Part shown: positions 1,419-33,651 of the stretch, piece by piece
How the letters are laid out: each line of letters opens with the position of its first letter
How positions within the stretch are numbered: position 1 is the stretch's first letter
Origin: a virus
Taxonomy: Duplodnaviria > Caudoviricetes
Strand: one strand, 5' to 3'
Virus record (IMG/VR): IMGVR_UViG_3300037397_000008
Coordinates: 1 to 34,939 of that record
DNA length: 34,939 nucleotides
Made by a program: the position numbers and the translations under genes
The notes under the pieces: generated by a model
Databases searched by the model: none
What the model was told of the DNA's origin: nothing
Seen by the model: the letters and a program-made list of their open reading frames with translations, nothing else

Positions 1419-3687
1419 TTGGCAAATTCTCCAACATATAAAACCTTTTTCCGGTTCGGTAACTAACGCATAAACCGAGCCCCTTCAACATGCGTGAAAA
1501 GGCCACGTTTCCGATATGATCTCCAGTTTCAAACTCGTACGCCGCTCTTAGTTCACTGGGTGACCATTTTATTTTCTTTTTTTGTAATTTGCGTAAAAAT
1601 TGAACAAGTTCTTGCGCATTACAATCCATTTCCGAATACAGTAAAGCACCATCTTTGTTGTATTTTGTAAATTTCCTCGCCTTATAAAGCCGTTTATATC
1701 CTTCTAGCGCCCAATTAAAAATTCCGCTTAATTCCGTTTGTAATTTTTTTTTTAATTGTGTATCTTCGTTCCCACTAAACGTTTTGGTAAATTTAATAAC
1801 CATGATTCTATTTTTTAACGCAATATCAAAGTTTAAATGTTCAGGCGCTTTGTTAAAGGCGATTAAAAATTTTGGAACTTCTTCACACAAATACGAACCA
1901 CCGTATAGTTGTCGCGCAACCATTTTATTTGTTGATGATAGTTTTTTTAACTCGTTTAACAATTGCGTTTGTTTTTCGTTGAAAAACTCATCAACAAAAA
2001 CCACTTTCCTTAAGCTTAATAATTCGTGGCGGCGTTCTGGTTTTAAAATGTCATCGGAGCTGACTTCGTTACCGCCGACCAAACTCAAAAGAACACTCGC
2101 AATAGTTCCCTTCCCAGATCTGCTGGAACCAAAAAACAACATAAGTTTTTCAAGGGAGCGGTCATAGGTTAAGCAATAGCCGAAATACTCTTGTAAAAGG
2201 GTAATTTGTGGCGCTGTTGGACTTCCAAAATAAGACGCTAAACATTCTAGCCAGGTTTTACAACTGGCTTTCGGGTCGTAGTCATACGGTAATAAGGTGG
2301 TTGAAAAAAATTGAGGCGAATGTGGCAAGAAAAGAAAACGGCCGTTTTTAAATAAAAAAACCCCATTTTTTAAAACCATCACATTATTTTTTTTGATTAG
2401 TTCAAAATTTAATTTCATAAAACCCATAGAACACGTAAGCACCTTTTTTGCATAGGTTAACGAATCACCACGGCTATTGTAAAAGGTTTTTACCGCACAA
2501 ATTGCCGACAAATAATAATTATAGTCAATTTCTAAATGTTCTTTCGGCCGTTCATCGTAACAGGCTCCATTATATTCATATATCTGTGAATAAAGTGGAT
2601 GATACAAAATGGCCCTATGGAATAATTTAACCCAATTAACAGCGTCTGCTTGTGGATTCATTGTTAAAAAGCCAATTCTGAACAAATTTGAATGAATCCA
2701 GTGTTTTTTTTCAAAAATCGTGTGATATAGGTGGTCAAGTGTCCAACCTGTAATATGACCCTGCAAAATAGCGGCTGTGATATATAAAACTGTATTTGAT
2801 GAAATCGTTTTAACCGGGTAATTCCCTTTTAATAGTTCGCGCATGATTGGCAGCATGTAATCTGATAATTTGGTTTCACAAGAAGCATGCTTGCAATGTA
2901 TTGTTGCTCTAAATTTCTTTGTGGGGTAATTAAACAAAGACCCACAAGGCTTTTTCGGGTGCCAATCAAACAAACAAACGCCGTTTGTATCCAATGCGCC
3001 CCAGTGAATCCGATCCCTAAAAATGCTATAAAACGCATGCACCGACAGCAAAACATTAACCTTTGTTTTTATGGGTACGGTTTCATAGTTTTTGGGTGCT
3101 GTTAATACGTGGATGTTTCCTATTGTTTTTGTGTCATCTTCAAACTGGTGTTTTACCTCATAAAAACCAGAACGAGCAACAAAATTTAAGGGGCAATCTG
3201 TCGGCCTAACGTGGAAAAATTGAGTTGGTGTCAAGCAACCCCGTTGTAATATGTTCTTTTCAAACAATGATGCAACATCCATAAACATTTCTGACAAAAG
3301 GCCCATGATTAAATCTTTGTAAGCACGTTTTCCGCTGTAAGGTATTGGATGAAGAAATGGTATAATTATACGGTGGTTTCCGCTGTGGGTTTGGTGATAA
3401 AAAAAATCAAATCCGCTTTTAACGTCTGACACATCAAATTTTTTCGCGTCATAATCTAACATTACACCGGTAATCTTATTGGGCTTTGCTTTTCTATTGG
3501 TACGCAACACACAAGACCACAACGGCGAACTATCTTTTTTTGCATTGCTCGAGATGTTGAAAATAGAATTTGACCCCGTATTGTCCAGCTGTATGGTTTT
3601 TTGTTGGAGTGGGGCGCCCAGTTCATCACACCCCTTAGAAAATTTATCCGACAAAAAAACCACGTCTATTGTAGTAGACATCACCAA
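1405..3687 (-). CDS. AEP primase / SF3 (D5/P4-alpha-like) helicase fusion
   Basis: N-terminal MLDYD and THSG..HRIIIP primase motifs; C/H zinc-finger-like segment; GSSRSGKGT Walker A; VVFVDE Walker B. Start is probably ATG 3681 (GGAG 7 nt upstream). Confidence 0.88.
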   Translation of the reverse strand: MVMSTTIDVVFLSDKFSKGCDELGAPLQQKTIQLDNTGSNSIFNISSNAKKDSSPLWSCVLRTNRKAKPNKITGVMLDYDAKKFDVSDVKSGFDFFYHQTHSGNHRIIIPFLHPIPYSGKRAYKDLIMGLLSEMFMDVASLFEKNILQRGCLTPTQFFHVRPTDCPLNFVARSGFYEVKHQFEDDTKTIGNIHVLTAPKNYETVPIKTKVNVLLSVHAFYSIFRDRIHWGALDTNGVCLFDWHPKKPCGSLFNYPTKKFRATIHCKHASCETKLSDYMLPIMRELLKGNYPVKTISSNTVLYITAAILQGHITGWTLDHLYHTIFEKKHWIHSNLFRIGFLTMNPQADAVNWVKLFHRAILYHPLYSQIYEYNGACYDERPKEHLEIDYNYYLSAICAVKTFYNSRGDSLTYAKKVLTCSMGFMKLNFELIKKNNVMVLKNGVFLFKNGRFLFLPHSPQFFSTTLLPYDYDPKASCKTWLECLASYFGSPTAPQITLLQEYFGYCLTYDRSLEKLMLFFGSSRSGKGTIASVLLSLVGGNEVSSDDILKPERRHELLSLRKVVFVDEFFNEKQTQLLNELKKLSSTNKMVARQLYGGSYLCEEVPKFLIAFNKAPEHLNFDIALKNRIMVIKFTKTFSGNEDTQLKKKLQTELSGIFNWALEGYKRLYKARKFTKYNKDGALLYSEMDCNAQELVQFLRKLQKKKIKWSPSELRAAYEFETGDHIGNVAFSRMLKGLGLCVSYRTGKRFYMLENLPNDEE

Positions 3688-3697
3688 TCTCCGCCCT

Positions 3698-4702: not shown

Positions 4703-4764
4703 TTTAATTCTCCGTTTTTTGTTTATTTATAGTTTAATAATAAATAAATAGTAGGTACCTTGTC

Positions 4765-6197: not shown

Positions 6198-6680
6198 TTA
6201 CAGTTTTAGTTCGTTTTTTCTGTTTTCAAGTACACAATACAACAACGCTATCGCATCCGCTTCGTTGTTATCTTCTGGCTTATGGCCCCGGGCTTCTACC
6301 GCTGCGATAACAGCCTGCTTTCCCGCATTGCCTTTTCCAGTGATGAACTTCTTGATCGTTCCAACCGGAATGCCTTCATAGGGGATGTTGTGCGATTCAC
6401 ACCAGGCGGTGAGTGACGCCATAAACCCGCCGTAAACGTGTGCGGCGTCCATTCCGATATGTCGCCGCACTTCTTCAAAATAAACTGAGTCTATTTCACC
6501 TAATAAAACTAAGGTTTCATCCAACCACCGCATAAAACGCATAAAACGCATGCCCCCGCCATCAAAACGCCGGTTATTAAAAGACGTAGTGCCGCTCATG
6601 ATTATTTCGTTTTTGTTGATGAGTGCCCACCCTGTAGTGGTTCCCAGATCGAGAGTGAGGATTATAGGTTTTTTATTCAT
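6198..6680 (-). CDS. RuvC-like Holliday junction resolvase (phage WO-type), canonical copy
   Basis: LDLGTTTGWA, GGGMRF, YFEEVRRH, AAHVYGG, TIKK..TGKGNA, NEADA. Start ATG 6680 has an AGGAG RBS, unlike the track start at 6716. Confidence 0.9.
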   Translation of the reverse strand: MNKKPIILTLDLGTTTGWALINKNEIIMSGTTSFNNRRFDGGGMRFMRFMRWLDETLVLLGEIDSVYFEEVRRHIGMDAAHVYGGFMASLTAWCESHNIPYEGIPVGTIKKFITGKGNAGKQAVIAAVEARGHKPEDNNEADAIALLYCVLENRKNELKL

Positions 6681-7147
6681 TTTATAGATCTCCTTTTTTT
6701 CTGTTTTCAAGTACACAATACAACAACGCTATCGCATCAGCTTCACTGTTATCTTCTGGCTTATGGCCACGGTCGGCGACAGCTTCGCGAACTGTCTCTT
6801 TTTTCGAATTGCCTTTGCCAGTGAGGGCCTTCTTAATTGTTACAACCGAAACGCTTTTATAGGGAATTTTGTGCGATTCACACCAGGCGGTGAGTGACGC
6901 CATATAACAGGCGTAAGCGTTTTGGGGTAGCCTTCCCGGACGTCTCCGCACTTCTTCAAAATAAACCAAGTCTATTTCACCTAATAAAACTAAGGTCTCA
7001 TCCAACCACCGCATAAAACGCATAAAACGCCGGTTATTAAAAGACGTCGTTCCGCTCATGATTATTTCGTTTTTGTTGATGATTGCCCACCCTGTAGTGG
7101 TTCCCAGATCGAGAGTGAGGATTATAGGTTTTTTATTCATTTTATAG
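6215..7147. repeat. Tandem gene duplication (about 460-480 bp units) of the ruvC-like gene
   Basis: Long near-identical nucleotide blocks shared by about 6215-6687 and 6696-7147. Confidence 0.93.
6682..7140 (-). CDS. RuvC-like resolvase, diverged tandem copy
   Basis: Same motifs as the adjacent copy, with a 7-aa deletion and two replaced blocks; ACGGAG RBS. Confidence 0.88.
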   Translation of the reverse strand: MNKKPIILTLDLGTTTGWAIINKNEIIMSGTTSFNNRRFMRFMRWLDETLVLLGEIDLVYFEEVRRRPGRLPQNAYACYMASLTAWCESHKIPYKSVSVVTIKKALTGKGNSKKETVREAVADRGHKPEDNSEADAIALLYCVLENRKKGDL

Positions 7148-7168
7148 TTCTCCGTTTTTTTGTTGTTG

Positions 7169-8110
7169 TTAATTAATGCGTGGTAAATCGTTCAAGCCTG
7201 GTGACGTTGACCACTGTAACATAATATGATTGTCTTTAAAAACAAACGCGTAGATTGTCAAAGGCACCAATGAAAAGGCGTCAGCCTGCCCCAGAAAATC
7301 CTCTATAGCGTAACAATTAAAATGTGCGATAGACTCAATGTCACCGACCGCACCGGTTAAAGACCGCGACCGTTCCAATGCGTTTACATATTCAGAATTT
7401 AGAAAAACAGCGTCATGCATAAAAACAAAGAAACGCTTGTGCTCTGGTCCGCTTATACTTTTTTTATTAATGTGATCTAAAAATAAAGTGAACGACTCTT
7501 TTTGTTTTTTGTCGTTTGCAACACCTTTTAGCCATGTATTAAAGGTTTGTTGTTTTATATCATAGTCACCTTGTTTTTTGTTCTCCGTTGTCTCTAGTGT
7601 CTCTATTAATGGATATACGTTTTGCATGTTCCACTGTATTTTGTTGTTTGTATTGTTTAACGTGGTTGTTATAGGGATTTCCATTAGGTTTATATAATGG
7701 TCTTGTTTTATTGACGCGCTAAACATCTCAACCGGTGATTTTTTCCAAGCTACACGGATTATTTTGGGGTTTGTTTTTAAATCTTTGTTCCACTGTAAAA
7801 AATGATGCAATTCGCATACCGGTTTTTTGTTGTTTATTCTATGGTCTGTTACTGGTTTTCCTTCTGTCCTTGTTAAGGTATTTCCTAGCAATTCATCTGC
7901 CGAAGGATTACCAGAAGATTGATAACATAAGTTATACGCTTTTGATACGTTTAAAACTGCTTGTATAGGCCATTCTTGTTTTGTCTCTAGATGTATATAT
8001 AATTTATGGGTTGCCGTTAAATAATGGGTTAGTATCCTTTTTGGGTCCGGTGTTTTTAAGTCTGTTGTACTTACTCGGTATTTTGTCCAGTTGTTTGTTA
8101 ATTTGTACAT
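7169..8110 (-). CDS. Hypothetical protein (early region)
   Basis: Long ORF; probable start ATG 8110 with TGGAG RBS (track start 8194); no recognised motif. Confidence 0.7.
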   Translation of the reverse strand: MYKLTNNWTKYRVSTTDLKTPDPKRILTHYLTATHKLYIHLETKQEWPIQAVLNVSKAYNLCYQSSGNPSADELLGNTLTRTEGKPVTDHRINNKKPVCELHHFLQWNKDLKTNPKIIRVAWKKSPVEMFSASIKQDHYINLMEIPITTTLNNTNNKIQWNMQNVYPLIETLETTENKKQGDYDIKQQTFNTWLKGVANDKKQKESFTLFLDHINKKSISGPEHKRFFVFMHDAVFLNSEYVNALERSRSLTGAVGDIESIAHFNCYAIEDFLGQADAFSLVPLTIYAFVFKDNHIMLQWSTSPGLNDLPRIN

Positions 8111-8166
8111 TGTTATTTTTCTCCATTTTTTTGTTATTTTTTTTTGGTTGTTACGTTTGTTTTTAT

Positions 8167-8697
8167 CTACATACTGGTGGGTATTTGTGCACATTGTATA
8201 CCAGCATAATATGTGTGTGTTTGTATGGGGTTGTTCGTTTCGTCTTGTTCGTAGAAAAGAACCATACGAAAAAGCTCCGGATTCTTTGCTTTTGTTTCAT
8301 ACCATTTCAAAAAATAATGTACTTCTCCGGTCGGATTGGTTTTTTTTATGGTACTCATGTCGCTTATGAATCCAAATTCAAATTCTTTACTTTTCAGTTT
8401 TTTTATATTATCACTCTGATCTATGTGCATTTTGTGCAATCCATACAGCCGCACACAACCAGGTTCAATAGGAGCCAACTTTTTACCAACTATCTTTGCA
8501 CCCAAATCATAGCCGGACACAAGAAACGGGCGCACTATTTTTGTAATGTGCTCTATATTTCTTTTTTTGGTTGTGAAAGTGTATTTATCCCAACGCGGTA
8601 GGTCTATTTCTTCCTCAAGATCGTCCTGTGTTCTTATAATTATTTCTTTTGGTATCATGGTTTTTTTCACTCCGTAATGTTGTTTGTTATTGTCCAC
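8167..8697 (-). CDS. Hypothetical protein (early region)
   Basis: ORF co-oriented with the operon; alternative start ATG 8658 preceded by ACGGAG. Confidence 0.7.
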   Translation of the reverse strand: MDNNKQHYGVKKTMIPKEIIIRTQDDLEEEIDLPRWDKYTFTTKKRNIEHITKIVRPFLVSGYDLGAKIVGKKLAPIEPGCVRLYGLHKMHIDQSDNIKKLKSKEFEFGFISDMSTIKKTNPTGEVHYFLKWYETKAKNPELFRMVLFYEQDETNNPIQTHTYYAGIQCAQIPTSM

Positions 8698-9409
8698 CTG
8701 ACGTGGACATTGCGTTTACAATCGTGTCGATTTTTAATCTTATGTTTTTCCGTTCCCCCCGTTTTAGTTGCTCCGGAAAAACAGGCTTGTAGATGTCTTC
8801 CAGCTCGCTTTCTGTAAAGGTCAAAAAGTGGACCATGTTGCTATATGGGTTTTTATTTCGTATAATGTCATAACATTCAACAAGCAATTGCTTGTTTCCT
8901 TTTATGCAGTCCCGCAAAGTGTGAATTATCTTTACCGGCCTTTCTACTAACAATCTGCTAAATAAATCCGAAACAATATGTTCACCAATTGGATTGTTGT
9001 CTATAACGTTTTTATAGATACCCGATTTATCAAAAACAATGGAATAATATTTTATTCCGTTAGAATTGTTCAACATGTTTATTAAAAATTCACCTTCTAG
9101 CACCTCTAATATGTTATTGACCTCATCGCCTTTAACTGCTGCATTGCATGCGTCTACAATCACCTTGCTTTTTGTTTTTGTTTTTTGTTTTGGTTTGGAA
9201 TTGTTTATGATCTTGTGCTTTAAATTAGTTACAACATCAAAGTTATAAAGTGCATCTAAATATATAAAAATAGGATGATTGGTTAAAAAGTTATAACCAT
9301 GTTTTTCTTGTAAATTGCTTAAAATGCAATAAGTCGTGTCCAGCCGAAAAGTTAGCCTAACTTTTTTTGTTTGTTTCAAGTTTAAAATTGAATCCGTTTT
9401 GTAGCGCAT
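8687..9409 (-). CDS. Hypothetical protein, first gene of the leftward operon; possible ribbon-helix-helix-like N-terminus
   Basis: Strong ACGGAGG RBS; KKVRLTFRLD resembles an RHH beta-ribbon (weak evidence). Confidence 0.7.
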   Translation of the reverse strand: MRYKTDSILNLKQTKKVRLTFRLDTTYCILSNLQEKHGYNFLTNHPIFIYLDALYNFDVVTNLKHKIINNSKPKQKTKTKSKVIVDACNAAVKGDEVNNILEVLEGEFLINMLNNSNGIKYYSIVFDKSGIYKNVIDNNPIGEHIVSDLFSRLLVERPVKIIHTLRDCIKGNKQLLVECYDIIRNKNPYSNMVHFLTFTESELEDIYKPVFPEQLKRGERKNIRLKIDTIVNAMSTSGGQ

Positions 9410-9445
9410 TTTTTTAACCTCCGTTTCCTTTTGTGTTATGTGTTT

Positions 9446-9474
9446 ATTTTGGTTTATTTTGCTTTTTGTGTCAA
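9446..9474 (-). promoter_or_regulatory. Putative leftward (early) promoter
   Basis: Minus strand TTGACA (9474-9469), 17 nt, CAAAAT; perfect -35 but weak -10. Confidence 0.45.
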
Positions 9475-9550
9475 TTTTTTACATGTAAGACATTTCCGCT
9501 TTCGTTTGTGAGTCGTTTTTTTTGTGTGTTTTTGATCTGTTTTCAATGTG

Positions 9551-9823
9551 TTTGATTAGTTTTTACAGGTGTTGAGTTGAGGCCATTTAGGTGGCGTGTT
9601 GAGGCCATTTAGGTGCTGTGTTGAAGGCCTTAGGTGTTGTGTTGTTTTTTATGGTTTAAAATTAATCAGGCCTGTTTTTTTATGGGTATACGCCACCTAA
9701 AAATAGTAACACAACACCTAAAACGGCTTTACTCAACACCTATTTTCGCTTAACTCAACACCTGTTTTTCCATTAACTCAACACCTAAACGCTTGTACTC
9801 AACACCTGTCAAAATGAATCAAA
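9551..9823. repeat. Convergent iteron-like array (4 x AGGTGTTGAGT-like, then 6 x inverted ACTCAACACCT-like); candidate replication origin
   Basis: AGGTG at 9567, 9589, 9611, 9632; CACCT at 9694, 9715, 9737, 9759, 9782, 9803; period 21-23 bp; AT-rich centre; outer 27-bp inverted repeat (24/27). Confidence 0.9.
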
Positions 9824-9923
9824 AGTTGCAAGTGTTTGATTTTCTATTGTTTTCCTTGTTTTCTTCTTTTCTTTTAAAGGAAAAAAAAGGAAAAAAAAGA
9901 AATAAAAAAAATAGGAATGGGGT

Positions 9924-9961
9924 GAAATGTGTGATAGTTGAGGGAAATGTGTGATAGTTGA
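9924..9961. repeat. Perfect 18-bp direct repeat GAAATGTGTGATAGTTGA x2
   Basis: 9924-9941 and 9944-9961. Confidence 0.9.
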
Positions 9962-10167
9962 TGAAAAATAGGGGTATAAATAAAAGAACTTTTACACAGT
10001 TTTTACGCGCCAGCCAATAAAACACGTATAATTATTGATTTATCAATGAGTTAACCTTGTTTTTGATTAGTTTTGACAGGTGTTGCGTTGTTTTGCACAA
10101 ACTGAGAAACGCAACAAAAAAGTTTATATTGAATTACACTTTACCCCCCCCCAAAAAACGGCAGCAA

Positions 10168-10196
10168 TTGACATAAATGTTTTTTTGTGGTATGTT
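10168..10196 (+). promoter_or_regulatory. Sigma70-type promoter P1
   Basis: TTGACA-17 nt-TATGTT with TGn extension. Confidence 0.75.
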
Positions 10197-10202
10197 GGTT
10201 TT

Positions 10203-10370
10203 GTTGTTGGAAAAACCGTGGTTTGTCACAACGGTGTAAGTCGGTCAGCATTTAAAAACTGCACTGTTGCTTAATCGGACAACCCACGTTAACACGGATT
10301 TGCGTTGGGGGAAGTTTAACGCGATCTCTTCCCCTAATGCACGTTTCAAGATAATAATGTGTTGCCAACT
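10203..10370 (+). ncRNA. Putative structured ncRNA 1
   Basis: Downstream of P1. Stems at 10215-10235, 10241-10278 and a 14-bp stem at 10301-10341 with two G-U pairs; possible closing GUUGG/CCAAC. Confidence 0.5.
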
Positions 10371-10371
10371 G

Positions 10372-10400
10372 TTGACATGCCAAGCAAAAAACACTATACT
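10372..10400 (+). promoter_or_regulatory. Sigma70-type promoter P2
   Basis: TTGACA-17 nt-TATACT, near consensus. Confidence 0.8.
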
Positions 10401-10405
10401 TATTA

Positions 10406-10456
10406 AGTGGCCTTGGGTTCTCCGTTCCCGTATGGCCACTACCCCAACGTTTTTAA
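10406..10456 (+). ncRNA. Putative small hairpin RNA 2 with anti-SD-like loop UUCUCCGUU
   Basis: AGTGGCC/GGCCACT stem starts at the expected +1 of P2; inner GGG/CCC stem closes the TTCTCCGTT loop. Confidence 0.55.
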
Positions 10457-10464
10457 TTTCTCAT

Positions 10465-10494
10465 TTGATTTCAAACAAAAAACCGGGGTACAAT
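10465..10494 (+). promoter_or_regulatory. Sigma70-type promoter P3
   Basis: TTGATT-18 nt-TACAAT. Confidence 0.6.
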
Positions 10495-10499
10495 GAAGA

Positions 10500-10634
10500 C
10501 TCCGGATATTTGACTTACCCTTTCATCTCCGTTCACCTTAGATATCCGGGGGATTGAAATAACGTGCTAAACCGTATAAAGCACGTTAGGGTGGACCCAC
10601 CCCATGATGGAGTGGGTCTTCCGTTTTATGTTTT
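10500..10634 (+). ncRNA. Putative three-hairpin RNA 3 / late leader with UCUCCGUU loop
   Basis: 14-bp stem at 10500-10551 (3 G-U) with a 24-nt pyrimidine-rich loop; perfect 9-bp stem at 10560-10588; GC-rich stem at 10593-10619. Confidence 0.55.
10593..10634 (+). terminator. Possible intrinsic terminator/attenuator before the late operon
   Basis: GACCCACCCCA-TGA-TGGAGTGGGTC followed by an interrupted T tract (TTCCGTTTTATGTTTT). Confidence 0.45.
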
Positions 10635-10653
10635 GGTGTTGCGGTCGTGCCGT

Positions 10654-11154
10654 ATGATAACAAAAAAAACAGTTGCAGAAAAATTACAAGAAAAAGCCAG
10701 CAAACAACTGTTAAAATACCAACGAAAAAAAACAGCAAAAAACTATAACAATTATGTAGAAGCTGCCTATTTTCTTGCACAGCATTTATTGCTTGAAAAA
10801 GCGAGCAACGGAAACACGCTTGCAATTCTTGAATTTTCAAAACAACAAAAAGCGTTACCATTGGACAATATGGATGAATGGCCACAGCTGCAAAACTTAA
10901 CAGCTGACGATGTGACCATTTTAAAAGAGCGTATCAAAGCAACAAAGAAAAACAAATTTAAGCGCCCGTTAACAACGCAATACCTTGCAGAATTATTTGA
11001 CGCGGGTGATATCACGGTGGCAGAATACGAGCAGTTTTTGCAATTGTTACGTGTGAAATCATTAATTGAAACAAACGACCAACTAGCACAAGAAATAAAA
11101 GTTAATCTATTACAAACGGTTGACAACGTACTAAACATAAAAAACAACGCATAG
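10654..11154 (+). CDS. Putative terminase small subunit
   Basis: Helical, basic ORF directly before TerL; assigned by position only. ATG 10654 preferred because the track start at 10564 lies within RNA hairpins. Confidence 0.55.
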   Translation: MITKKTVAEKLQEKASKQLLKYQRKKTAKNYNNYVEAAYFLAQHLLLEKASNGNTLAILEFSKQQKALPLDNMDEWPQLQNLTADDVTILKERIKATKKNKFKRPLTTQYLAELFDAGDITVAEYEQFLQLLRVKSLIETNDQLAQEIKVNLLQTVDNVLNIKNNA

Positions 11155-11161
11155 GTGGTTT

Positions 11162-12415
11162 GTGTTTGAGTTGACATATAAACAATTAACAGCATTAAAC
11201 TTGTTAACCCCAGACATCTATTACTTTTTAATGTATGGTGGTTCTCGGTCTGGTAAAACGTCTTTAGGGGTTTACCTTTGTTTGCACACTGCGTTACGGT
11301 TTCCAGGTTCACAAATATTAATCTGCAAGCATTTTTTAAGCGATTTAAGAAAATCAATTGTTCATCAAACCATCCCGCAAATCGGTGCGTTGTTGTCACC
11401 TGATTTTCCACGGTATTTTGAGGAAAATTTTAACAACAAAGATTATTACATACAATTTTCAAATAAAAGTGTGATATGGTTTGAAGGGTTATCAAACGAC
11501 AAACAAAGCGAAAAAATTTTAGGACGCGAATATAATTTGATATTTCTTTCTGAGTGTACGCAAGTGGAATTTTCAGTGTATAGTAAATTGCTAAGCCGTT
11601 TAGCAAAAAACATAAAACATTATGTAAACCGTGTCTTACTAGATTGCAATCCAACTAGCAAAAAGTCATGGGTTTATTGTTTATTCGTTGAGCACAAAGA
11701 CCCAACAACAAACACACCAGTTACGAACCCACAAAATTATTCACACATTGTTATGAATCCAACAGACAACCCACATATTCCACATCAATACCTAAACATT
11801 TTGAAACACACCTCAAGCAACGAATTAAAGCGGTTCTATTGTGGTGAGTGGGCGGACGATTTAGAAGGCGCACTGTGGAAACACAAATGGATAAATGATC
11901 ACAGGCGCGAAAATATAAACCTGCAACAATTCGATGCGTGTGTTCTAGGCGTTGACCCAGCGGTAAGCACATCAGCAAACAGTGATGAAACGGGTTTAAT
12001 AGTTGCAGGGCGCATAAAAAACGAGTATTATATTATTGCCGATTTAAGTGGTGTTTATACGCCGTTAGAATGGGCGAAAAAAATAGCCTATGCATATGAA
12101 AAATATTCATGTGATTATGTGATTGTAGAAGTGAATCAAGGCGGCGATTTGGTTAAAGCAAACATAAAAAACGTTTGTCCGTCTGTATTTGTAAAGTCGG
12201 TACATGCAAAGCGTGGTAAAATCTTACGAGCAGAACCAATAGCGGCATTGTATGAAAGTGGGCTTGTTCATCATGTTAATTATCACAAAGAACTAGAATA
12301 CCAATTAATTGCATGGGACCCAGGTAAAACTACATTTTCACCGGATCGAGTTGATGCGCTAGTGTATGCATTAACCGAATTATCAAAACCAAAACACACA
12401 CCAGCGGTTTATTAA
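11162..12415 (+). CDS. terL: Terminase large subunit
   Basis: YGGSRSGKT, LIFLSE, DCNP, nuclease motifs GVDPA and DRVDA. Confidence 0.95.
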   Translation: MFELTYKQLTALNLLTPDIYYFLMYGGSRSGKTSLGVYLCLHTALRFPGSQILICKHFLSDLRKSIVHQTIPQIGALLSPDFPRYFEENFNNKDYYIQFSNKSVIWFEGLSNDKQSEKILGREYNLIFLSECTQVEFSVYSKLLSRLAKNIKHYVNRVLLDCNPTSKKSWVYCLFVEHKDPTTNTPVTNPQNYSHIVMNPTDNPHIPHQYLNILKHTSSNELKRFYCGEWADDLEGALWKHKWINDHRRENINLQQFDACVLGVDPAVSTSANSDETGLIVAGRIKNEYYIIADLSGVYTPLEWAKKIAYAYEKYSCDYVIVEVNQGGDLVKANIKNVCPSVFVKSVHAKRGKILRAEPIAALYESGLVHHVNYHKELEYQLIAWDPGKTTFSPDRVDALVYALTELSKPKHTPAVY

Positions 12416-12416
12416 C

Positions 12417-13712
12417 ATGGCAACGCTTGAAAACAAATCAAAATTTGACATGGTGAAAAATTGGTTTAAACGCCCAATAAAAAACACATATGTTCCGAAT
12501 TATCCAAATTTGCCAGTTATGGCCAATCTTGCACAACAACAATACAATTATAAAACTCTGACAATTTACGATTACATCCGTTTTTATAATGATGTTGCAC
12601 CATTGTCGCATTGCATAGATTTAATTGCTACCAAGTTCGGTGAAATTGAAATAAAACTTTATGACACAAAGAAAAAAGAATTTATACAATCGCACCCGGC
12701 GCTAGATTTGTTTTATAAGCCAATGATACCAACACAACCCGATTATATGACGCTAGCAATGCAAGAACTGAGTTTTTTAGAAATCACGGGGAGTTGTTTT
12801 TGGTTGCTTGAGTTGTCTGCTTCTGGTAAACCGTTGGGGATAACTGTCGTTAACCCCCTTTTTATAACGTTTATTGTCGGCGAACATGCAATAACAAGTT
12901 TTACCTATACACAACCACACAAAAAAATACTCACGTTTAAATTGAAAATCATCAATAACAAATACCGCTATTTGAGCGAGGACAACAAGCAAGAATTATT
13001 TTATGCAAAACTATTTAATCCCAATTACGATGCTGAAGAGTGTCTTGGTCAACCGAAATTAAGAAACCTAGCATATCAATTACAACAGTATATTAATCTT
13101 TGTATGTTGAATATTTCACAACTTGAAAATGGTGGTCGTCCTTCTGGCTGTGTGTCAACGAAAGACCAGCATAACTATAGCGTTGAACAGTTGCGCGAGT
13201 TACAACAAGAAGTAAATCAAACGGTTAGAGGCAGCAACAACGCAGGCCGTATTTTAGTGCTTGACAATTTAGAATGGAAAAGCTTTTCATTTTCAAACAA
13301 AGATTGTGAATACAATGCCGCGCGTCAACAAATAAAAGAAGAGATATACAACCGTTTTAACGTGCCACTTGCGTTGGTAAACTCTAACGCCTTGAGTCTT
13401 GCAAACTTAGAAGTTTCCGCATTACAATTTTACACCATGAGCGTTTTACCAACCACGCAAAAGCTTTACTCCGCCTTGAGTAACAACATATTATATCGGT
13501 ATGCAAATAGTGAAAATCTAATTTACATGTATGACGAGGCGACGATTACCGCGTTACGTATGAAGTTGTTGGAAGAGTTAAAAGAAATGGCGGCCTTTGG
13601 TGTTATGAGTGACAACGAAATCCGTTTGCGAATGAATTTAAACAATGCGGCAGACGCTAACAATGTTTATAAACCAAGCACGATGGTTCCAACCTATTCG
13701 GTTGAAAACTGA
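12417..13712 (+). CDS. Portal protein (HK97 family)
   Basis: ENGGRPSG, GSNNAGRILVL, FNVP, MSDNEIR; position after TerL. Confidence 0.95.
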   Translation: MATLENKSKFDMVKNWFKRPIKNTYVPNYPNLPVMANLAQQQYNYKTLTIYDYIRFYNDVAPLSHCIDLIATKFGEIEIKLYDTKKKEFIQSHPALDLFYKPMIPTQPDYMTLAMQELSFLEITGSCFWLLELSASGKPLGITVVNPLFITFIVGEHAITSFTYTQPHKKILTFKLKIINNKYRYLSEDNKQELFYAKLFNPNYDAEECLGQPKLRNLAYQLQQYINLCMLNISQLENGGRPSGCVSTKDQHNYSVEQLRELQQEVNQTVRGSNNAGRILVLDNLEWKSFSFSNKDCEYNAARQQIKEEIYNRFNVPLALVNSNALSLANLEVSALQFYTMSVLPTTQKLYSALSNNILYRYANSENLIYMYDEATITALRMKLLEELKEMAAFGVMSDNEIRLRMNLNNAADANNVYKPSTMVPTYSVEN

Positions 13713-13723
13713 GGTAAAAAAAA

Positions 13724-14704
13724 ATGAAAAACCACGAAAGAATAACCAAGCGTTTTGAATTGAAATCAATTAAGGATAGTGAAAATGATAACGTAGGACG
13801 CTTTGAAGGATGGGCGTATATTTATGACGAAGTTTCCAGCGGTAATGAAATTGTATTGCGAAATGCATTGACGGAAAGTTTAAATTCCAAAACAAAAAAG
13901 ATTCCCATATTGCGCAGCCATAACATGGAAGAAGTAATTGGCGGCGTAAATGCTTCCGATGTGCAAGACAAAGAGGAAGGTTTATACATGAAAGGTGAGT
14001 TGGATTTGAACGTGCAAGCCGCTCGAGAAACGTATTCACTAATGAAACATGGTTTTTTAAATGGTATTTCATTGGGCGGCTGGTCTTACTATTCTGATGA
14101 ATCAATAAACAACGATGGCGTGACAGAAATAGCAAAAATGCAACTTGAAGAAATCTCTATAGTACCTGTTCCAGCGATAGCCAGCACAAAAATAACCCGC
14201 GTGTACTCTGTTCCACCCTATAAAGATTATGCAATGGTTGAGCGGGATGTAAAATGGGATGCTTCAAAAGCTATACAACAAATTAAAGAAAAAACAAAAT
14301 CGATGGATGGACCAAGTTCAACTTATAAAAATGGTTTTATGTATTTTGATAGTACAAACCCAGATGTGTTTAGCTCCTATAAGCTTCCCTATGTTTACGT
14401 GGTTAACGGCGAATTCAAGGCGGTCCCTAATGCAATCATAGCTATAAACGGCGTTTTGAATGGTGCTATGGGGGGCGTAGACATACCAACAAGCGACAAA
14501 GAAAAAGTACAAGCACAAGTTGATAAATATTATAAAAAAATGGGGATGGATAAAACAGAAAAAAAACAGTCTTTAAATGCAAATAACGTGGATGCGCATG
14601 CGTGGCTTTCTTATACAATGGAAGATTTCACATTGTTGCGAACTGTTGAAAAAAAACTAGACAAATTAACAGAAATGCTATATAATAAAACAATTCCCAC
14701 GTAA
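13724..14704 (+). CDS. Prohead protease (HK97/S78 type) with an extra C-terminal domain
   Basis: FEGWA, ILRSH, GISLG, LEEISIVPVPA; then a WD..YKLP..GAMGGVDIP domain. Confidence 0.92.
   Translation: MKNHERITKRFELKSIKDSENDNVGRFEGWAYIYDEVSSGNEIVLRNALTESLNSKTKKIPILRSHNMEEVIGGVNASDVQDKEEGLYMKGELDLNVQAARETYSLMKHGFLNGISLGGWSYYSDESINNDGVTEIAKMQLEEISIVPVPAIASTKITRVYSVPPYKDYAMVERDVKWDASKAIQQIKEKTKSMDGPSSTYKNGFMYFDSTNPDVFSSYKLPYVYVVNGEFKAVPNAIIAINGVLNGAMGGVDIPTSDKEKVQAQVDKYYKKMGMDKTEKKQSLNANNVDAHAWLSYTMEDFTLLRTVEKKLDKLTEMLYNKTIPT
14658..14686 (+). promoter_or_regulatory. Internal promoter upstream of the major capsid gene
   Basis: TAGACA-17 nt-TATAAT within the 3' end of the protease gene. Confidence 0.65.
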
Positions 14705-14758
14705 AAAATGATTAGCTGACCATTTTAACAAACTAAACTAGATCGCGCGATTAACCCA

Positions 14759-16351
14759 ATGAGCAAAATCATGAGTATAGACAGCGATATTTCGAAAAAG
14801 CTAGACAAGTTTGGTGAAATGGTTACCGCATACCACGACACTACCCACAAAAGTAAAGAAACATTAATAGAGCTAGGCAATAAAACCGGCGAACTGTTGG
14901 AGCAAATCCAACGGTTAAGAGGCGAAAAAGAAGAACTTGAAAAACGGTTTCAATCTCAAGAAAGTTCCTTACGTACGCTAGAACACATGTTTTCAGAAAA
15001 AAGCGACCCTCAAAACAATGAAGAAAAAATATTCAAAGAATACACGAAACGCGCGAATGCTGCGCTACGTTCTCAAAACTTATATCAACAAAGCCGAAAC
15101 GATAAAAAATTTTTAAGCGGAATGTTGAATGAACGATCAGAATTATCACAAGCATTTGTAAAAAAATTCACTAGAAGTGCGCACAATGTGAATCTTGCAA
15201 TGATTGAGGGTTCTGACCCTGCCGGTGGTTACTTCATTTTACCGCAATATTCTAATTGGGTCATAGGGCGCCAGTTTGAAACAACACCAATGCGGCAAAT
15301 TTGTAATGTAACAACAACAACCTCCGATGTTCTTAATACTATTATAGATGATCAATTATTTGCCTCAGGTGGTTGGGTTGGTGAAGTTGACCCAAGAGCC
15401 CCAACCGATACAGCCCAATACGGTTTATTGTCTATCCCGGCTCATGAAGTTTACACCTATCCACGCGCAAGTTTGCGAATGCTCGAGGATGCAAATTTCA
15501 ATTTGTTAGAATTCGTTACCAAAAGAGCCCGTATTTCTTTGGACTTACTCACTAATGCATCCTTTGTTTCTGGTAATGGTATCCAAAAACCTAGAGGAAT
15601 TGTTGACTATCCAGAGTGGCAAGGCACGCCCGTTGTGTTCGGTAATGCGTCCAATTATGAGCGTGGCGCATTGGAAACAATTTATAGTGGGGTTGCTAAT
15701 GGTTTTACTTATGATGGTTTAGTAAACATTCAAAACAGTTTGCTGGAAGACTATCAAGCAAATGCAAAGTGGTTAATGACGCGTCAGGCGTGGGCACTTA
15801 TTTTGTCTTTGACAGATACCAACGGGCGCCCGTTAATCAACTTTTTAAACCCATTAGAAGTTAGACAAAAGCCAACCTTGTTAGGTAAAGAAGTGTGGAT
15901 AGCAGCGCCAAACACGGCCCCCACAAATCCAACAATCCCATACACCGGTGGTGGGTTGCCGTTACCGGTTACAGGAAACAAAGCCCTTGTATATGGTGAC
16001 TTTTTCATAGGTTACACCATTGTAGACCGTGGCGGCGTGTACACAATGACAAACTTCGTTACAGAGCCGCAATATGTGCAGTACTATGTGCGTGAGCGCG
16101 TTGGTGGGGCGTTAACTAGCTATGCATCGTTAAAAGTAATGGTTATTGGTGCAGACCCTGGAAACGCTATTCAACGCAAAAATCAGTTGTTAGAAAATAG
16201 AGCTGATGAAGCTGGTTATAAAAAATTGACATTAAGTTCAACACTCACAGAGGGAGTTGATGAATTGGTAAATAAACAAACAAAAAAAGAGTATGACAAC
16301 TTAGACAAAGAGTTGGACAAGATGAAACACACCATCCAAAAGAAGGTATAA
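14759..16351 (+). CDS. Major capsid protein (HK97 fold) with delta domain and C-terminal extension
   Basis: N-terminal coiled coil, GGYFILP, WVGE, GNGIQKPRGI, YGDF, RERVGG. Confidence 0.96.
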   Translation: MSKIMSIDSDISKKLDKFGEMVTAYHDTTHKSKETLIELGNKTGELLEQIQRLRGEKEELEKRFQSQESSLRTLEHMFSEKSDPQNNEEKIFKEYTKRANAALRSQNLYQQSRNDKKFLSGMLNERSELSQAFVKKFTRSAHNVNLAMIEGSDPAGGYFILPQYSNWVIGRQFETTPMRQICNVTTTTSDVLNTIIDDQLFASGGWVGEVDPRAPTDTAQYGLLSIPAHEVYTYPRASLRMLEDANFNLLEFVTKRARISLDLLTNASFVSGNGIQKPRGIVDYPEWQGTPVVFGNASNYERGALETIYSGVANGFTYDGLVNIQNSLLEDYQANAKWLMTRQAWALILSLTDTNGRPLINFLNPLEVRQKPTLLGKEVWIAAPNTAPTNPTIPYTGGGLPLPVTGNKALVYGDFFIGYTIVDRGGVYTMTNFVTEPQYVQYYVRERVGGALTSYASLKVMVIGADPGNAIQRKNQLLENRADEAGYKKLTLSSTLTEGVDELVNKQTKKEYDNLDKELDKMKHTIQKKV

Positions 16352-16352
16352 T

Positions 16353-16904
16353 ATGGCTATTGTAGACGTTGCCTCAAATTTAAGAATCTACGGAGTAACG
16401 CCAATATTGTTTAATGGTGCGGGGCCGTATTATACAACGGCCCCAATTGATACAAGTGCATTTCAAAAAGCCATGATGATTTTGCCGGTCTTGTTAGATA
16501 CTTCGGCAGTAAGTCCAACCGTTACATTTGATAAATTTTTAACCTCAACGGATAATACAACTTATACCACTCTAAATCCTGATGGGTATATTTTGGGCAA
16601 AGACGCAGGGGCGCCGATACCGGTTGGAACACTAACCGGTGGGTTTCAAAATATAATGCAAACAATTGGGTTTATTGGCGGAAAACTGTATATTGTAGCA
16701 AGCTTTTTTAGTACAGACGCTGTTCAAGGGTCTCATTATATGCTAGTTTTTTGGTGTGGATACACCCGCATATCGCCGAACCAAGGATATCCGCTAGAGC
16801 TTGAAACCACTGTAATAAATCAGTACCGCAATAAATTTAACGAAGAATACGCCAGAAAAAAACATGATGGCCGCAACATAAACACAAAAACAAAAAGGTT
16901 ATAA
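16353..16904 (+). CDS. Putative capsid decoration/cement protein 1
   Basis: Beta-rich protein directly after the MCP; D..SN start and IG..G.K.Y motif. Confidence 0.6.
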   Translation: MAIVDVASNLRIYGVTPILFNGAGPYYTTAPIDTSAFQKAMMILPVLLDTSAVSPTVTFDKFLTSTDNTTYTTLNPDGYILGKDAGAPIPVGTLTGGFQNIMQTIGFIGGKLYIVASFFSTDAVQGSHYMLVFWCGYTRISPNQGYPLELETTVINQYRNKFNEEYARKKHDGRNINTKTKRL

Positions 16905-16905
16905 A

Positions 16906-17370
16906 ATGGTCAATAGTTATGATATAAAATCGAATGTTGAATTATTTTCAATAGGAGAACATGAGTTTTCAAATGGTAATCCGGGTCAAATTCATGTGTT
17001 TAGTGGTATTGAAATCGTTCCTAATATGAGCTACGCATTTCTTGTTTTTCAAACCAACCGTATAACCCCGGCAGGAGGAACAGACTCATGGCCACAAACC
17101 GCATATGGTATTTCTGAAATTTTGCAATCCGATCTCACAACCGGACCGTTTGAACCAATTCCAGCAGGGGCGTATTTCGGAAACCTCGCAACAAATTCCA
17201 ACCTTGTTTATAATTTTAACACCCCGTATCAAATGATCGGCGTATTACCTACTAAACAATTTTTAGAAATTACCATTATAACAAGGACCACTATTCCATT
17301 CAATGGTTATATGTCTACTGGTACGTTGTTCGCTATTCGTGGTCCTCAGATTGTACCAGGTGCATCGTAA
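16906..17370 (+). CDS. Putative capsid decoration/cement protein 2 (paralogue of the previous gene)
   Basis: Motifs collinear with 16353-16904. Confidence 0.55.
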   Translation: MVNSYDIKSNVELFSIGEHEFSNGNPGQIHVFSGIEIVPNMSYAFLVFQTNRITPAGGTDSWPQTAYGISEILQSDLTTGPFEPIPAGAYFGNLATNSNLVYNFNTPYQMIGVLPTKQFLEITIITRTTIPFNGYMSTGTLFAIRGPQIVPGAS

Positions 17371-18072
17371 GTGTCCTTTTTGCTTGGTGGTATAGGTGGT
17401 ACCCTATCACCACCATTGGTTACACCTAACAACATTTATTACCCTTCCGACCGGTACGTGGTGTTGGATGCGTCCGATGTGTTGCCTGTTACATTGTTGG
17501 CGGTAAAAGAGTTTTTGCGTATTCCGGTGGACGTTGTCGATCATGATACATTGTTAACAACCTTGATACAAACCGCCGGTTTATATTTCGAAACATATAC
17601 CGGTTACACATTAATTAACAAAACATATAGACATTTTAAAAACCAATTAGCCAGCGTTTTAGAAATGACAAAAGGTCCATTGGTAAACCTGGTACAATTT
17701 TTATACTATAGTTTGGAAGATCAAGCATTCAATGAAATTGACCCAACAACCTACCAGGTTTTAAATGAAAAAAATTACTGGCGAATTGCCTTTAAACCAT
17801 TTGCAGCAGAAAATTATCAAATAGGCTATAATAACGCACCTTATCAAAATGTTATTGTTGATTTTGTCGCCGGTTTTGGTGAAACGTCTGAGGACATTCC
17901 AATTGACTTACAAACTGCGTTAAAAAATCATGTGTCTTTTTTGTATGAAAACACGGGTGATTGTGATGATGGCAGTTGTAAAGGCAATATAGCGTTGCCA
18001 AAAACAACAAAAATGATCTATGACTTATATAGAGTTTTATCAGTAACGGGTGGTAAATATAGGGGCATTTGA
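17371..18072 (+). CDS. Head-tail connector/adaptor (HK97 gp6-like)
   Basis: PVTL..VKEFLRI, D.LL..LI, AGFG....IP.DL..A, LYEN. Confidence 0.88.
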   Translation: MSFLLGGIGGTLSPPLVTPNNIYYPSDRYVVLDASDVLPVTLLAVKEFLRIPVDVVDHDTLLTTLIQTAGLYFETYTGYTLINKTYRHFKNQLASVLEMTKGPLVNLVQFLYYSLEDQAFNEIDPTTYQVLNEKNYWRIAFKPFAAENYQIGYNNAPYQNVIVDFVAGFGETSEDIPIDLQTALKNHVSFLYENTGDCDDGSCKGNIALPKTTKMIYDLYRVLSVTGGKYRGI

Positions 18073-21709: not shown

Positions 21710-22105
21710 ATGAGTAATGCAATATCAACACCGGCTTTAGTAATTCAGGGTGTACCAATTTTATTTATTCCAAATTCGTTAGCCGTGAAAACTGGAACCG
21801 GTGTATATGATGTAACCACCCGTGTTTTTGGCGCGGAAATCGACACGGTTTTCAGTCAAGACCTAGCCACTGATACGATGAGCGTTGTAACCTTCAACAT
21901 TAATCCGGTTGCTGATATGATCAATTTAATGCTAGATTTTAAAAGTCAAGGTCCTGTGTTAGATTTGGAATACTATGACCCTTTGTCGAACTCTCGCTAT
22001 TCTATATCCCCTTGCGTGTTAACAACTGATTTTGAATTAATGCTTGGTGCTGGAAAAGAAATAACAATCGAGATTAAAGGCGCCCCTGCTGTAGCCGTAA
22101 CATAA
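21710..22105 (+). CDS. Tail tube protein
   Basis: 131-aa beta-rich ORF directly after the sheath gene. Confidence 0.78.
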   Translation: MSNAISTPALVIQGVPILFIPNSLAVKTGTGVYDVTTRVFGAEIDTVFSQDLATDTMSVVTFNINPVADMINLMLDFKSQGPVLDLEYYDPLSNSRYSISPCVLTTDFELMLGAGKEITIEIKGAPAVAVT

Positions 22106-33633: not shown

Positions 33634-33651
33634 TTTATATGTCTCCGATCG

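Follow-up and report, generated by a model that had tools for sequence, protein, structure and literature searches.

The window analysed here is a linear stretch of 34,939 nucleotides, i.e., the whole IMG/VR record of an uncultured phage from a salt-marsh metagenome. CheckV estimates the completeness of the record at 46%, and the helicase gene is open at its left end. Two gene arms diverge from the non-coding interval 9410-10653. The plus strand carries the terminase, portal, protease, major capsid and tail sheath genes (10654-31947), and the minus strand carries the genes for helicase, primase, exonuclease, two RuvC-like proteins and DNA polymerase. Within this interval lie a predicted promoter of the early genes (9474), a pair of inverted repeat arrays (9565-9807) and a compact cassette of about 430 nt, which is predicted to be sigma70-driven. 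Contigs of a DNA run that may be the source of the record match 7752-17442 with 0 differences, which argues against a misassembly of this part, though the contigs are not independent of the record; none of the contigs of that run extends the right end. The features of the divergence region are as follows.

9446-9474, minus strand: predicted early promoter of the replication arm, TTGACA-17-CAAAAT, from the promoter pattern
9565-9807, no strand: two inverted arrays of repeats with a 22-nt period (AGGTGTTG / CAACACCT), from a repeat search, outside the cassette
10168-10196, plus strand: P1, sigma70-like, TTGACA-17-TATGTT, 10/12 matches, TG present
10203-10347, plus strand: RNA1 region, predicted fold with a branched stem (10218-10288) and a long hairpin (10296-10347), no anti-RBS seed
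10372-10400, plus strand: P2, TTGACA-17-TATACT, 11/12 matches, best promoter match of the window
10407-10439, plus strand: hairpin 2, beginning at the predicted +1 of P2, with the 9-nt loop UUCUCCGUU at 10418-10426 (seed 1)
10465-10494, plus strand: P3, TTGATT-18-TACAAT, 9/12 matches, doubtful
10500-10551, plus strand: hairpin 3, 14-bp stem and 24-nt C/U-rich loop (10514-10537), with AUCUCCGUU at 10525-10533 (seed 2)
10560-10588, listed on the plus strand, strand ambiguous: hairpin 4, perfect 9-bp stem and 11-nt loop, no seed
10590-10634, plus strand: hairpin 5, terminator-like, its U tail interrupted, the sole such site called in the cassette (10601-10616)
10654-11154, plus strand: putative small terminase gene (terS), first late gene, starting at ATG 10654 and not at GTG 10564, no GGAG

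The start of terS at ATG 10654 is backed by an alignment with two relatives, and the extension to 10564 has a codon score of -0.19 vs +0.20 for the gene itself. The name is putative and rests on the position ahead of terL. For the arrays at 9565-9807, we infer a replication origin or a packaging site. Further repeats lie at 10061-10088, and a 20-mer occurs in two head-to-tail copies (95% identical) at 9924-9963, between the arrays and P1, as a possible protein-binding site. A D5-type primase-helicase and repeat arrays are both present in the window, a likeness to P4 alpha and its iterons.

A sequence-only reading of the DNA had placed three sigma70-like promoters at 10168, 10372 and 10465, each driving its own hairpin RNA. 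The promoter-like sites are located exactly there. P2 is the sole site among the four 11/12 sites of the window that has a perfect -35 hexamer; 17 sites reach 10/12, and 102 reach 9/12, the class of P3. Around the locus, 21 promoter-like sites were counted vs 16.7 +/- 5.8 in shuffled sequences. The strength of P3 is at background level and thus doubtful. The spacer of the early promoter resembles that of P2, with a 23-nt inverted match to 10372-10394 (74%). Hairpin 5 is likely a leaky common 3' end, as far as the terminator prediction goes. As this is the one terminator-like site called, a set of nested RNAs that all end near 10626 is more plausible than three units. Three discrete RNAs from three tandem promoters are therefore an over-reading: P3 is at background level, RNA1 has no seed and the cassette has one terminator. 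The stretch 10203-10634 is non-coding; the ORFs that cross the cassette have codon scores typical of shadow ORFs (-0.02 to -0.11) and no family match. A 96-codon ORF (10267-10557) was rejected as a gene on account of its codon score and the lack of a family match.

Five local structures of -17 to -27 kcal/mol are predicted within 10200-10640, and their sum is the highest among 77 plus-strand bins, which were aligned to the cassette. In a scan of 120-nt tiles with 12 shuffles per tile, which is noisy and cuts hairpins, the tiles over 10201-10560 are unremarkable (z -1.1 to +0.4), and only the tile at 10561 is singled out. In agreement with the earlier claim, a stem-loop starts within a few bases of each predicted +1. 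Its assignment of the structures to the plus strand, based on G-U pairs, holds for RNA1 (folding z -3.5 vs -1.1 on the minus strand), RNA2 (-3.4 vs -1.4) and RNA3 (-1.5 vs +0.9). The last two hairpins (10556-10640) show no such preference, their folding being equally good on the minus strand (z -6.0 vs -3.8).

The word UCUCCGUU is common to the loops of hairpins 2 and 3, whose stems are unrelated. This had been seen before with other loop borders; the loop of RNA2 has 9 nt, its leading G being part of the stem, and that of RNA3 has 24 nt. In all transcript contexts tried, the word has an unpaired probability of 0.54-1.0 per base, and opening a seed costs 0.3-0.4 kcal/mol. In transcripts reaching as far as 10850, the seeds remain single-stranded and have nothing in cis to pair with. 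RNA1 had been counted among the anti-RBS RNAs and drops out, its longest complement to any early start being 5-6 nt. In its long hairpin (10296-10347), the loop AACGC could pair with the 5' arm of the same hairpin (GCGUU), which makes an alternative fold possible. We also rejected the idea that the loops are decayed gene starts: no ATG stands behind them at Shine-Dalgarno (SD) spacing on the minus strand.

Candidate targets of the loops were listed from every minus-strand GGAG in the early arms.

3682-3697, minus strand: predicted target, RBS of the primase-helicase gene (ATG 3681), best partner of the 24-nt loop, duplex of -17 to -19 kcal/mol
4708-4716, minus strand: predicted target, RBS of exonuclease gene 4702, 9-nt complement
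7146-7156, minus strand: predicted target at the RuvC-like gene 7140, whose RBS complements hairpin 2 over 10 nt
9419-9425, minus strand: predicted target at the RBS of gene 9409, the first of the early genes, 7-nt complement
33642-33647, minus strand: predicted target, RBS of DNA polymerase gene 33633, CGGAGA
1418, 6136, 6680, 8110, 8658 and 34522, minus strand: other GGAG starts in the early arm

The perfect complements reported earlier were recovered at 7140 (10 nt), 4702 (9 nt) and 9409 (7 nt), as was CGGAG at the primase, polymerase and 8658 starts. Ranked by mean pairing to 11 early starts, the two loops take ranks 1 and 2 among the 22 CUCC sites on transcribed strands. They keep these ranks without the two exact-match genes, and take ranks 2 and 3 without all four ACGGAG starts. 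Among 24,128 9-mers scored on both strands, only antisense copies of early-arm sequence equal the loops. With a threshold of -10.0 kcal/mol, fixed after the scores were seen, two words at or below it were seen once when the cassette was dinucleotide-shuffled 20,000 times, and twice in as many shuffles of the whole non-coding stretch. Under permutation, the RNA2 loop ranks 1 of 504 and the RNA3 word 4 of 2,520. The mean duplex energy of the RNA2 loop is -10.0 kcal/mol with early starts vs -4.2 with late ones. By shuffles and by genome-wide rank, the pairing of the loops to early RBSs is thus beyond chance, as the earlier reading had supposed. Several of the loop-start duplexes have just 5-6 bp, and the helicase start site takes 6.0 kcal/mol to open vs -8.6 gained. 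The early starts are not independent; those of 4702 and 7140 resemble duplicates of a single start module.

The same words could be read at the level of DNA, with AACGGAG as an asymmetric operator to which a protein of the phage binds, both at the early starts and a short way past P2 and P3, and with hairpins that have nothing to do with it. This would explain why all copies of CTCCGTT (7 on the plus strand, 0 on the minus strand) lie in one absolute orientation, and one of several family-less early-arm ORFs could encode a DNA-binding protein. However, the word sits at exact SD spacing, 7-11 nt before the ATG, in the early genes, it degenerates to a core of 4-6 nt, and both copies in the cassette lie in loops, so that we consider an operator very improbable.

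CsrA recognises the consensus ANGGA in loops. Hairpins transcribed from the minus strand might hence act as CsrA/RsmA decoys that free ACGGA early starts from a host repressor. The reverse complements of the loops do contain ACGGA, and ANGGA is found in 7 of the 11 early starts. On the minus strand, however, hairpin 3 is absent (z +0.86) and hairpin 2 is weaker. The nearest upstream minus-strand promoter is a 9/12 site inside terS (10769), and P2 points in the opposite direction. We give such decoys hardly any credence.

The early and late genes differ in their SD sequences. GGAG precedes 11 of 12 early starts, 7-11 nt ahead of the ATG, vs 2 of 23 late starts (p = 2e-6), the early exception being gene 34866; the late starts mostly show AGGT, GAGG or no clear SD. 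This split is new beyond the sequence-only reading. The base before GGAG in the 11 early starts is C in six, U in three and A in two cases. It is C or U with which a G of the loop pairs, and the usual anti-SD favours A at this place. In an unsupervised count, C precedes GGAG in 7 of 13 starts of the window. The corresponding figures are 8 of 105 for a set of 36 low-GC phage loci (p = 1e-4) and 18 of 89 for 24 MAG loci, which are mostly proteobacterial and share the RuvC-like gene (p = 0.015). Compared with G001, one of two syntenic relatives (see below), the count is 7 of 13 vs 1 of 22 (p = 0.002), and against the early genes of G001 alone it is 6 of 11 vs 1 of 10 (p = 0.06). Without gene 7140, the C excess has p = 0.005. 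In the comparison loci, A dominates (59 of 105 in the phage loci, 40 of 89 in the MAG loci). This fit of loops to starts within one genome may serve as the nearest available stand-in for covariation, weakened by the apparent duplication of the start module and by the possibility that a host anti-SD with G opposite the Y accounts for the C/U bias without any RNA.

The loops might also be aimed mainly at the host, as anti-SD weapons on mRNAs with GGAG(A), from which the late genes escaped by dropping GGAG; an effect on early genes would then be a side effect or a second use. UCUCC would pair with any GGAGA site, and CGGAG starts are not confined to the window (the 18 of 89 in the MAG loci). On the late coding strand of the window, GGAG occurs 22 times against an expectation of 29.6; in G001, it occurs 111 times against 64.6. 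Loop-borne anti-SD motifs of NfeR1 and AbcR1/2 have very large target sets according to the accessible part of bioRxiv 10.1101/2025.11.14.688489. Against this explanation, the flanks of the motif (CGUU) fit the AACGGAG of the phage and not the AGGAG that dominates the comparison loci. We hold a mainly host-directed role to be unlikely.

Relatives of the phage are distant. The closest proteins have 44-59% identity for the terminase, with P0002 as the closest (59%), and about 45% for the capsid. The comparison at the DNA level covers two syntenic relatives, G001 (31 kb) and L251, with 44-45% terminase identity. G001 has an inverted repeat array, followed by a promoter with the two hexamers of P2 directly before terS; L251 has a tandem array and then terS. 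Neither has a cassette, and none of the top 48 anti-early words of G001 falls into its pre-terS interval. In G001, GGAG precedes 10 of 11 early starts; therefore, the GGAG core is an ordinary strong SD. It also precedes 12 of 27 late starts there vs 2 of 23 in the window (p = 0.01). In L251, 0 of 8 late starts have GGAG; as no cassette precedes terS, the avoidance in late genes may reflect host or lineage. At the sequence level, G001 thus supports a loss of GGAG in the late arm of the window, and L251 does not. Repeat arrays lie ahead of terS in all three phages, inverted in the window and in G001 (L082 ~495-850) and tandem in L251 (1-330). Their unit sequences are unrelated, and they are likely origin iterons or packaging sites.

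Homologues of the cassette were not found by pattern scans of viral sequences. A 15-mer of hairpin 2 recurs 30 times in viral sequences; the flanks there are unrelated, with 8-28 of 75 positions identical. With blastn, the region 10100-10700 gave only a 35-nt match within the start of terS in four phage records, and nothing in plasmids. Rfam gave no match above noise, neither for the window nor for 10150-10700. A strong promoter followed by TCTCCGTT occurs in 79 viral loci, in 11 of which the octamer is exposed in a loop. In these 11 loci, 0 of 40 detected starts were of the ACGGAG type vs 44 of 908 in controls; therefore, the exact word is not a widespread device. In the unrelated phage locus L362 (~6570-6710, minus strand), a 21-bp hairpin begins at the +1 of a strong promoter situated between divergent arms, and its C/U loop of 29 nt holds several CUCC words. 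This architecture is like that of hairpin 3, but the early starts are AAAGGA and do not match. On the protein side, terminase-alignment scans had distant phages among the matches listed, direct scans of viral contigs with the terminase and gene 9409 found no relative, and capsid alignment found no prophage in genome contigs. For gene 9409, a comparison with 186 candidates of about its length yielded no homologue, and neither this gene nor gene 34866 has a usable Atlas match.

P2 looks like the positional equivalent of the late promoter of G001, and therefore a cis role of the hairpins is possible. The cassette could be a structured leader of the late operon, e.g., an attenuator, an antitermination scaffold or an RNA-stability element, in which the loop matches are incidental. 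Hexamers and position make P2 the counterpart of a promoter that directly drives terS in G001, and the terminator-like hairpin stands just before terS. In addition, RNA1 and hairpin 4 are seedless, the loops are kept in neither G001 nor L251, and promoter-proximal C/U loops without matching starts exist elsewhere, L362 being an example. Such a leader leaves unexplained that the best anti-early word occurs twice (1 of 20,000 shuffles; ranks 1 and 2 of 22), that C or U is preferred before GGAG, and that the seeds have no cis partner. We judge a purely cis-acting leader to be a real but minor possibility. It is compatible with the anti-RBS reading if the leader does both, and the anti-RBS, cis-leader and host-directed readings can overlap.

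Several known systems share single traits with the cassette. The accounts given here follow the accessible parts of the cited sources. The c4 RNA of P1/P7 is a processed 77-nt RNA with three stems and two different loops (a', b') that belongs to an immunity system, and its loop pairing partly covers ribosome-binding sites (PMC5320573). A hairpin loop pairing with the mRNA of the phage itself, including its RBS, is present here as predicted complementarity. Unlike in c4, a single seed recurs in two hairpins and would address as many as 11 starts in the replication arm, and the Rfam C4 model has no match up to E 5 in the window and up to E 10 in 10150-10700. The NfeR1/cuckoo RNAs of Alphaproteobacteria carry redundant anti-SD motifs in several hairpin loops and silence many targets at the RBS (bioRxiv 10.1101/2025.11.14.688489). 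Redundant loop-borne seeds are found here as well, with the same octamer on two unrelated stems. The motif of these bacterial, host-directed RNAs is CCUCCUCCC, which is not in the loops, and Rfam gives no match; the phage-encoded word is UCUCCGUU, matched to the phage's own early starts.

P4 CI RNA pairs with the flanking seqA and seqC on its own transcript, which leads to termination (PMC4825925). The purpose would be alike, i.e., an RNA-based restraint of the phage's own replication genes. The geometry differs, as the RNA here comes from the opposite strand and its targets are ribosome-binding sites; flanking targets on the same transcript were not found, the seeds being unpaired to 10850 and their complements lying on the opposite strand. 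StxS is a short RNA from the terminated late promoter pR', depends on Q antitermination and targets rpoS and stx1 (PMC7547250). The layout of StxS and lambda 6S is recognisable by pattern, with P2 (11/12) and the terminator-like site 10601-10616 before terS. A short terminated RNA between late promoter and late genes with a role in trans is what we propose here, too; the predicted targets, unlike those of StxS, are early genes. No Q-type antiterminator family was found among the ORFs scanned in this 46% complete record. In view of the missing Rfam match, the other motif and the other geometry, the cassette belongs to none of c4, NfeR1, StxS and P4 CI.

On the target side, the closest published picture is the SAS motif of Cluster K mycobacteriophages, a private RBS word of 13 bp that is partly unexplained by 16S and occurs in 11-19 copies at non-structural genes only. 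Four genomes have one reversed copy off the gene starts, to which no RNA is assigned in the accessible part of the paper; whether RNA or protein binds is left open there (PMC3203893). Here, too, a private start word occupies the RBS position, mostly of replication genes (11 of 12 vs 2 of 23, with the C excess). Unlike SAS, it is a degenerate word of 5-9 nt whose two reversed copies lie in loops downstream of a promoter, and the early starts differ from the 13-bp Cluster K consensus as given in the accessible text (PMC3203893). Phage RNAs that control genes of their own phage act on one gene or operon, as far as the sources could be accessed (PMC12197685; PMC5320573; PMC4825925). The accessible part of the 2025 review among them (PMC12197685) holds no phage RNA that silences its own early genes through a shared RBS, and no paper on this was found in the open-access part of the literature.

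Implementing all facts, we regard it as somewhat probable that the cassette encodes a self-targeting anti-RBS RNA within a late leader, which would block the starts of the replication arm as a group. The DNA itself shows the word in two copies, the early starts complementary to it and the difference between early and late genes; the hairpins, their plus strand, P2 (probably also P1) and the terminator at 10590-10634 are predictions. Host sigma70 polymerase would fire P2 from the start of infection, alongside the early promoter at 9474, which resembles it. The result would be an accumulation of a stable ~220-nt RNA that reaches from 10407 to about 10626 and contains both loops, or of pieces processed from it. 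Its UCUCCGUU loops would pair with the A-Y-GGAG-A RBSs of the replication-arm genes and likely block their translation as a group, and loop-RBS pairing over 6-10 bp would outcompete the 4-6 bp of the 30S pairing. The structural genes would likely escape, since 21 of 23 lack GGAG and use a GGAG-free part of the SD. The outcome would be a delayed brake on the replication genes, either as early shut-off in a lytic cycle or as restraint or immunity in a carrier state.

Of the multi-target anti-SD cassette proposed in the sequence-only reading, the complementarity beyond chance stands and fits the early/late split, and the three sRNAs from three promoters do not. The phage had also been described as having no obvious repressor. 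A family search recognised none among the scanned ORFs, five early-arm ORFs having no family match. The absence of a repressor cannot be claimed, because the record is incomplete (46%, with the helicase gene cut). A wider interpretation, which we put forward tentatively, is that the phage has split its SDs into two address classes, early YGGAGA and late GGAG-free AGGU/GAGG. A doubled anti-YGGAG loop from the late leader would then act as a protein-free phase switch or immunity, maybe also damping host mRNAs with GGAG. Judged from its sequence, the feature is real and statistically unusual, but it is a singleton. If the reading is true, one seed silencing a whole replication arm via a shared RBS word would be a new, repressor-free way of phage timing. 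The question on SAS motifs that is left open in the accessible part of PMC3203893 would then have a testable answer as well.

Some further observations concern the remaining parts of the window and its relative. The RuvC-like paralogues lie in tandem (6198-7140) and have near-identical starts. The downstream copy has 64-74% identity to genes mostly in Alphaproteobacteria, far above the other proteins of the window vs their relatives. This suggests a recent acquisition of the copy and, with respect to the host, can be taken as a hint only. Gene 22771, a tail gene of 676 aa and one of the two late genes with a GGAG start, has imperfect tandem repeats of the KTSKTIETLKKN type in its N-terminal part (22950-23400). 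The tile with the lowest folding z-score of the window (21721-21840, z -9.1) lies inside the gene after the tail sheath gene and, with only 12 shuffles, may be noise. At the left end of G001 lies a gene for a repeat protein (L082 1-293); G001 also has a duplicated primase C-terminal gene (L220 12993-13853 and 16266-17339), and its early arm shows repeated gene-start modules (AAAC-AGGAGAAACTA).
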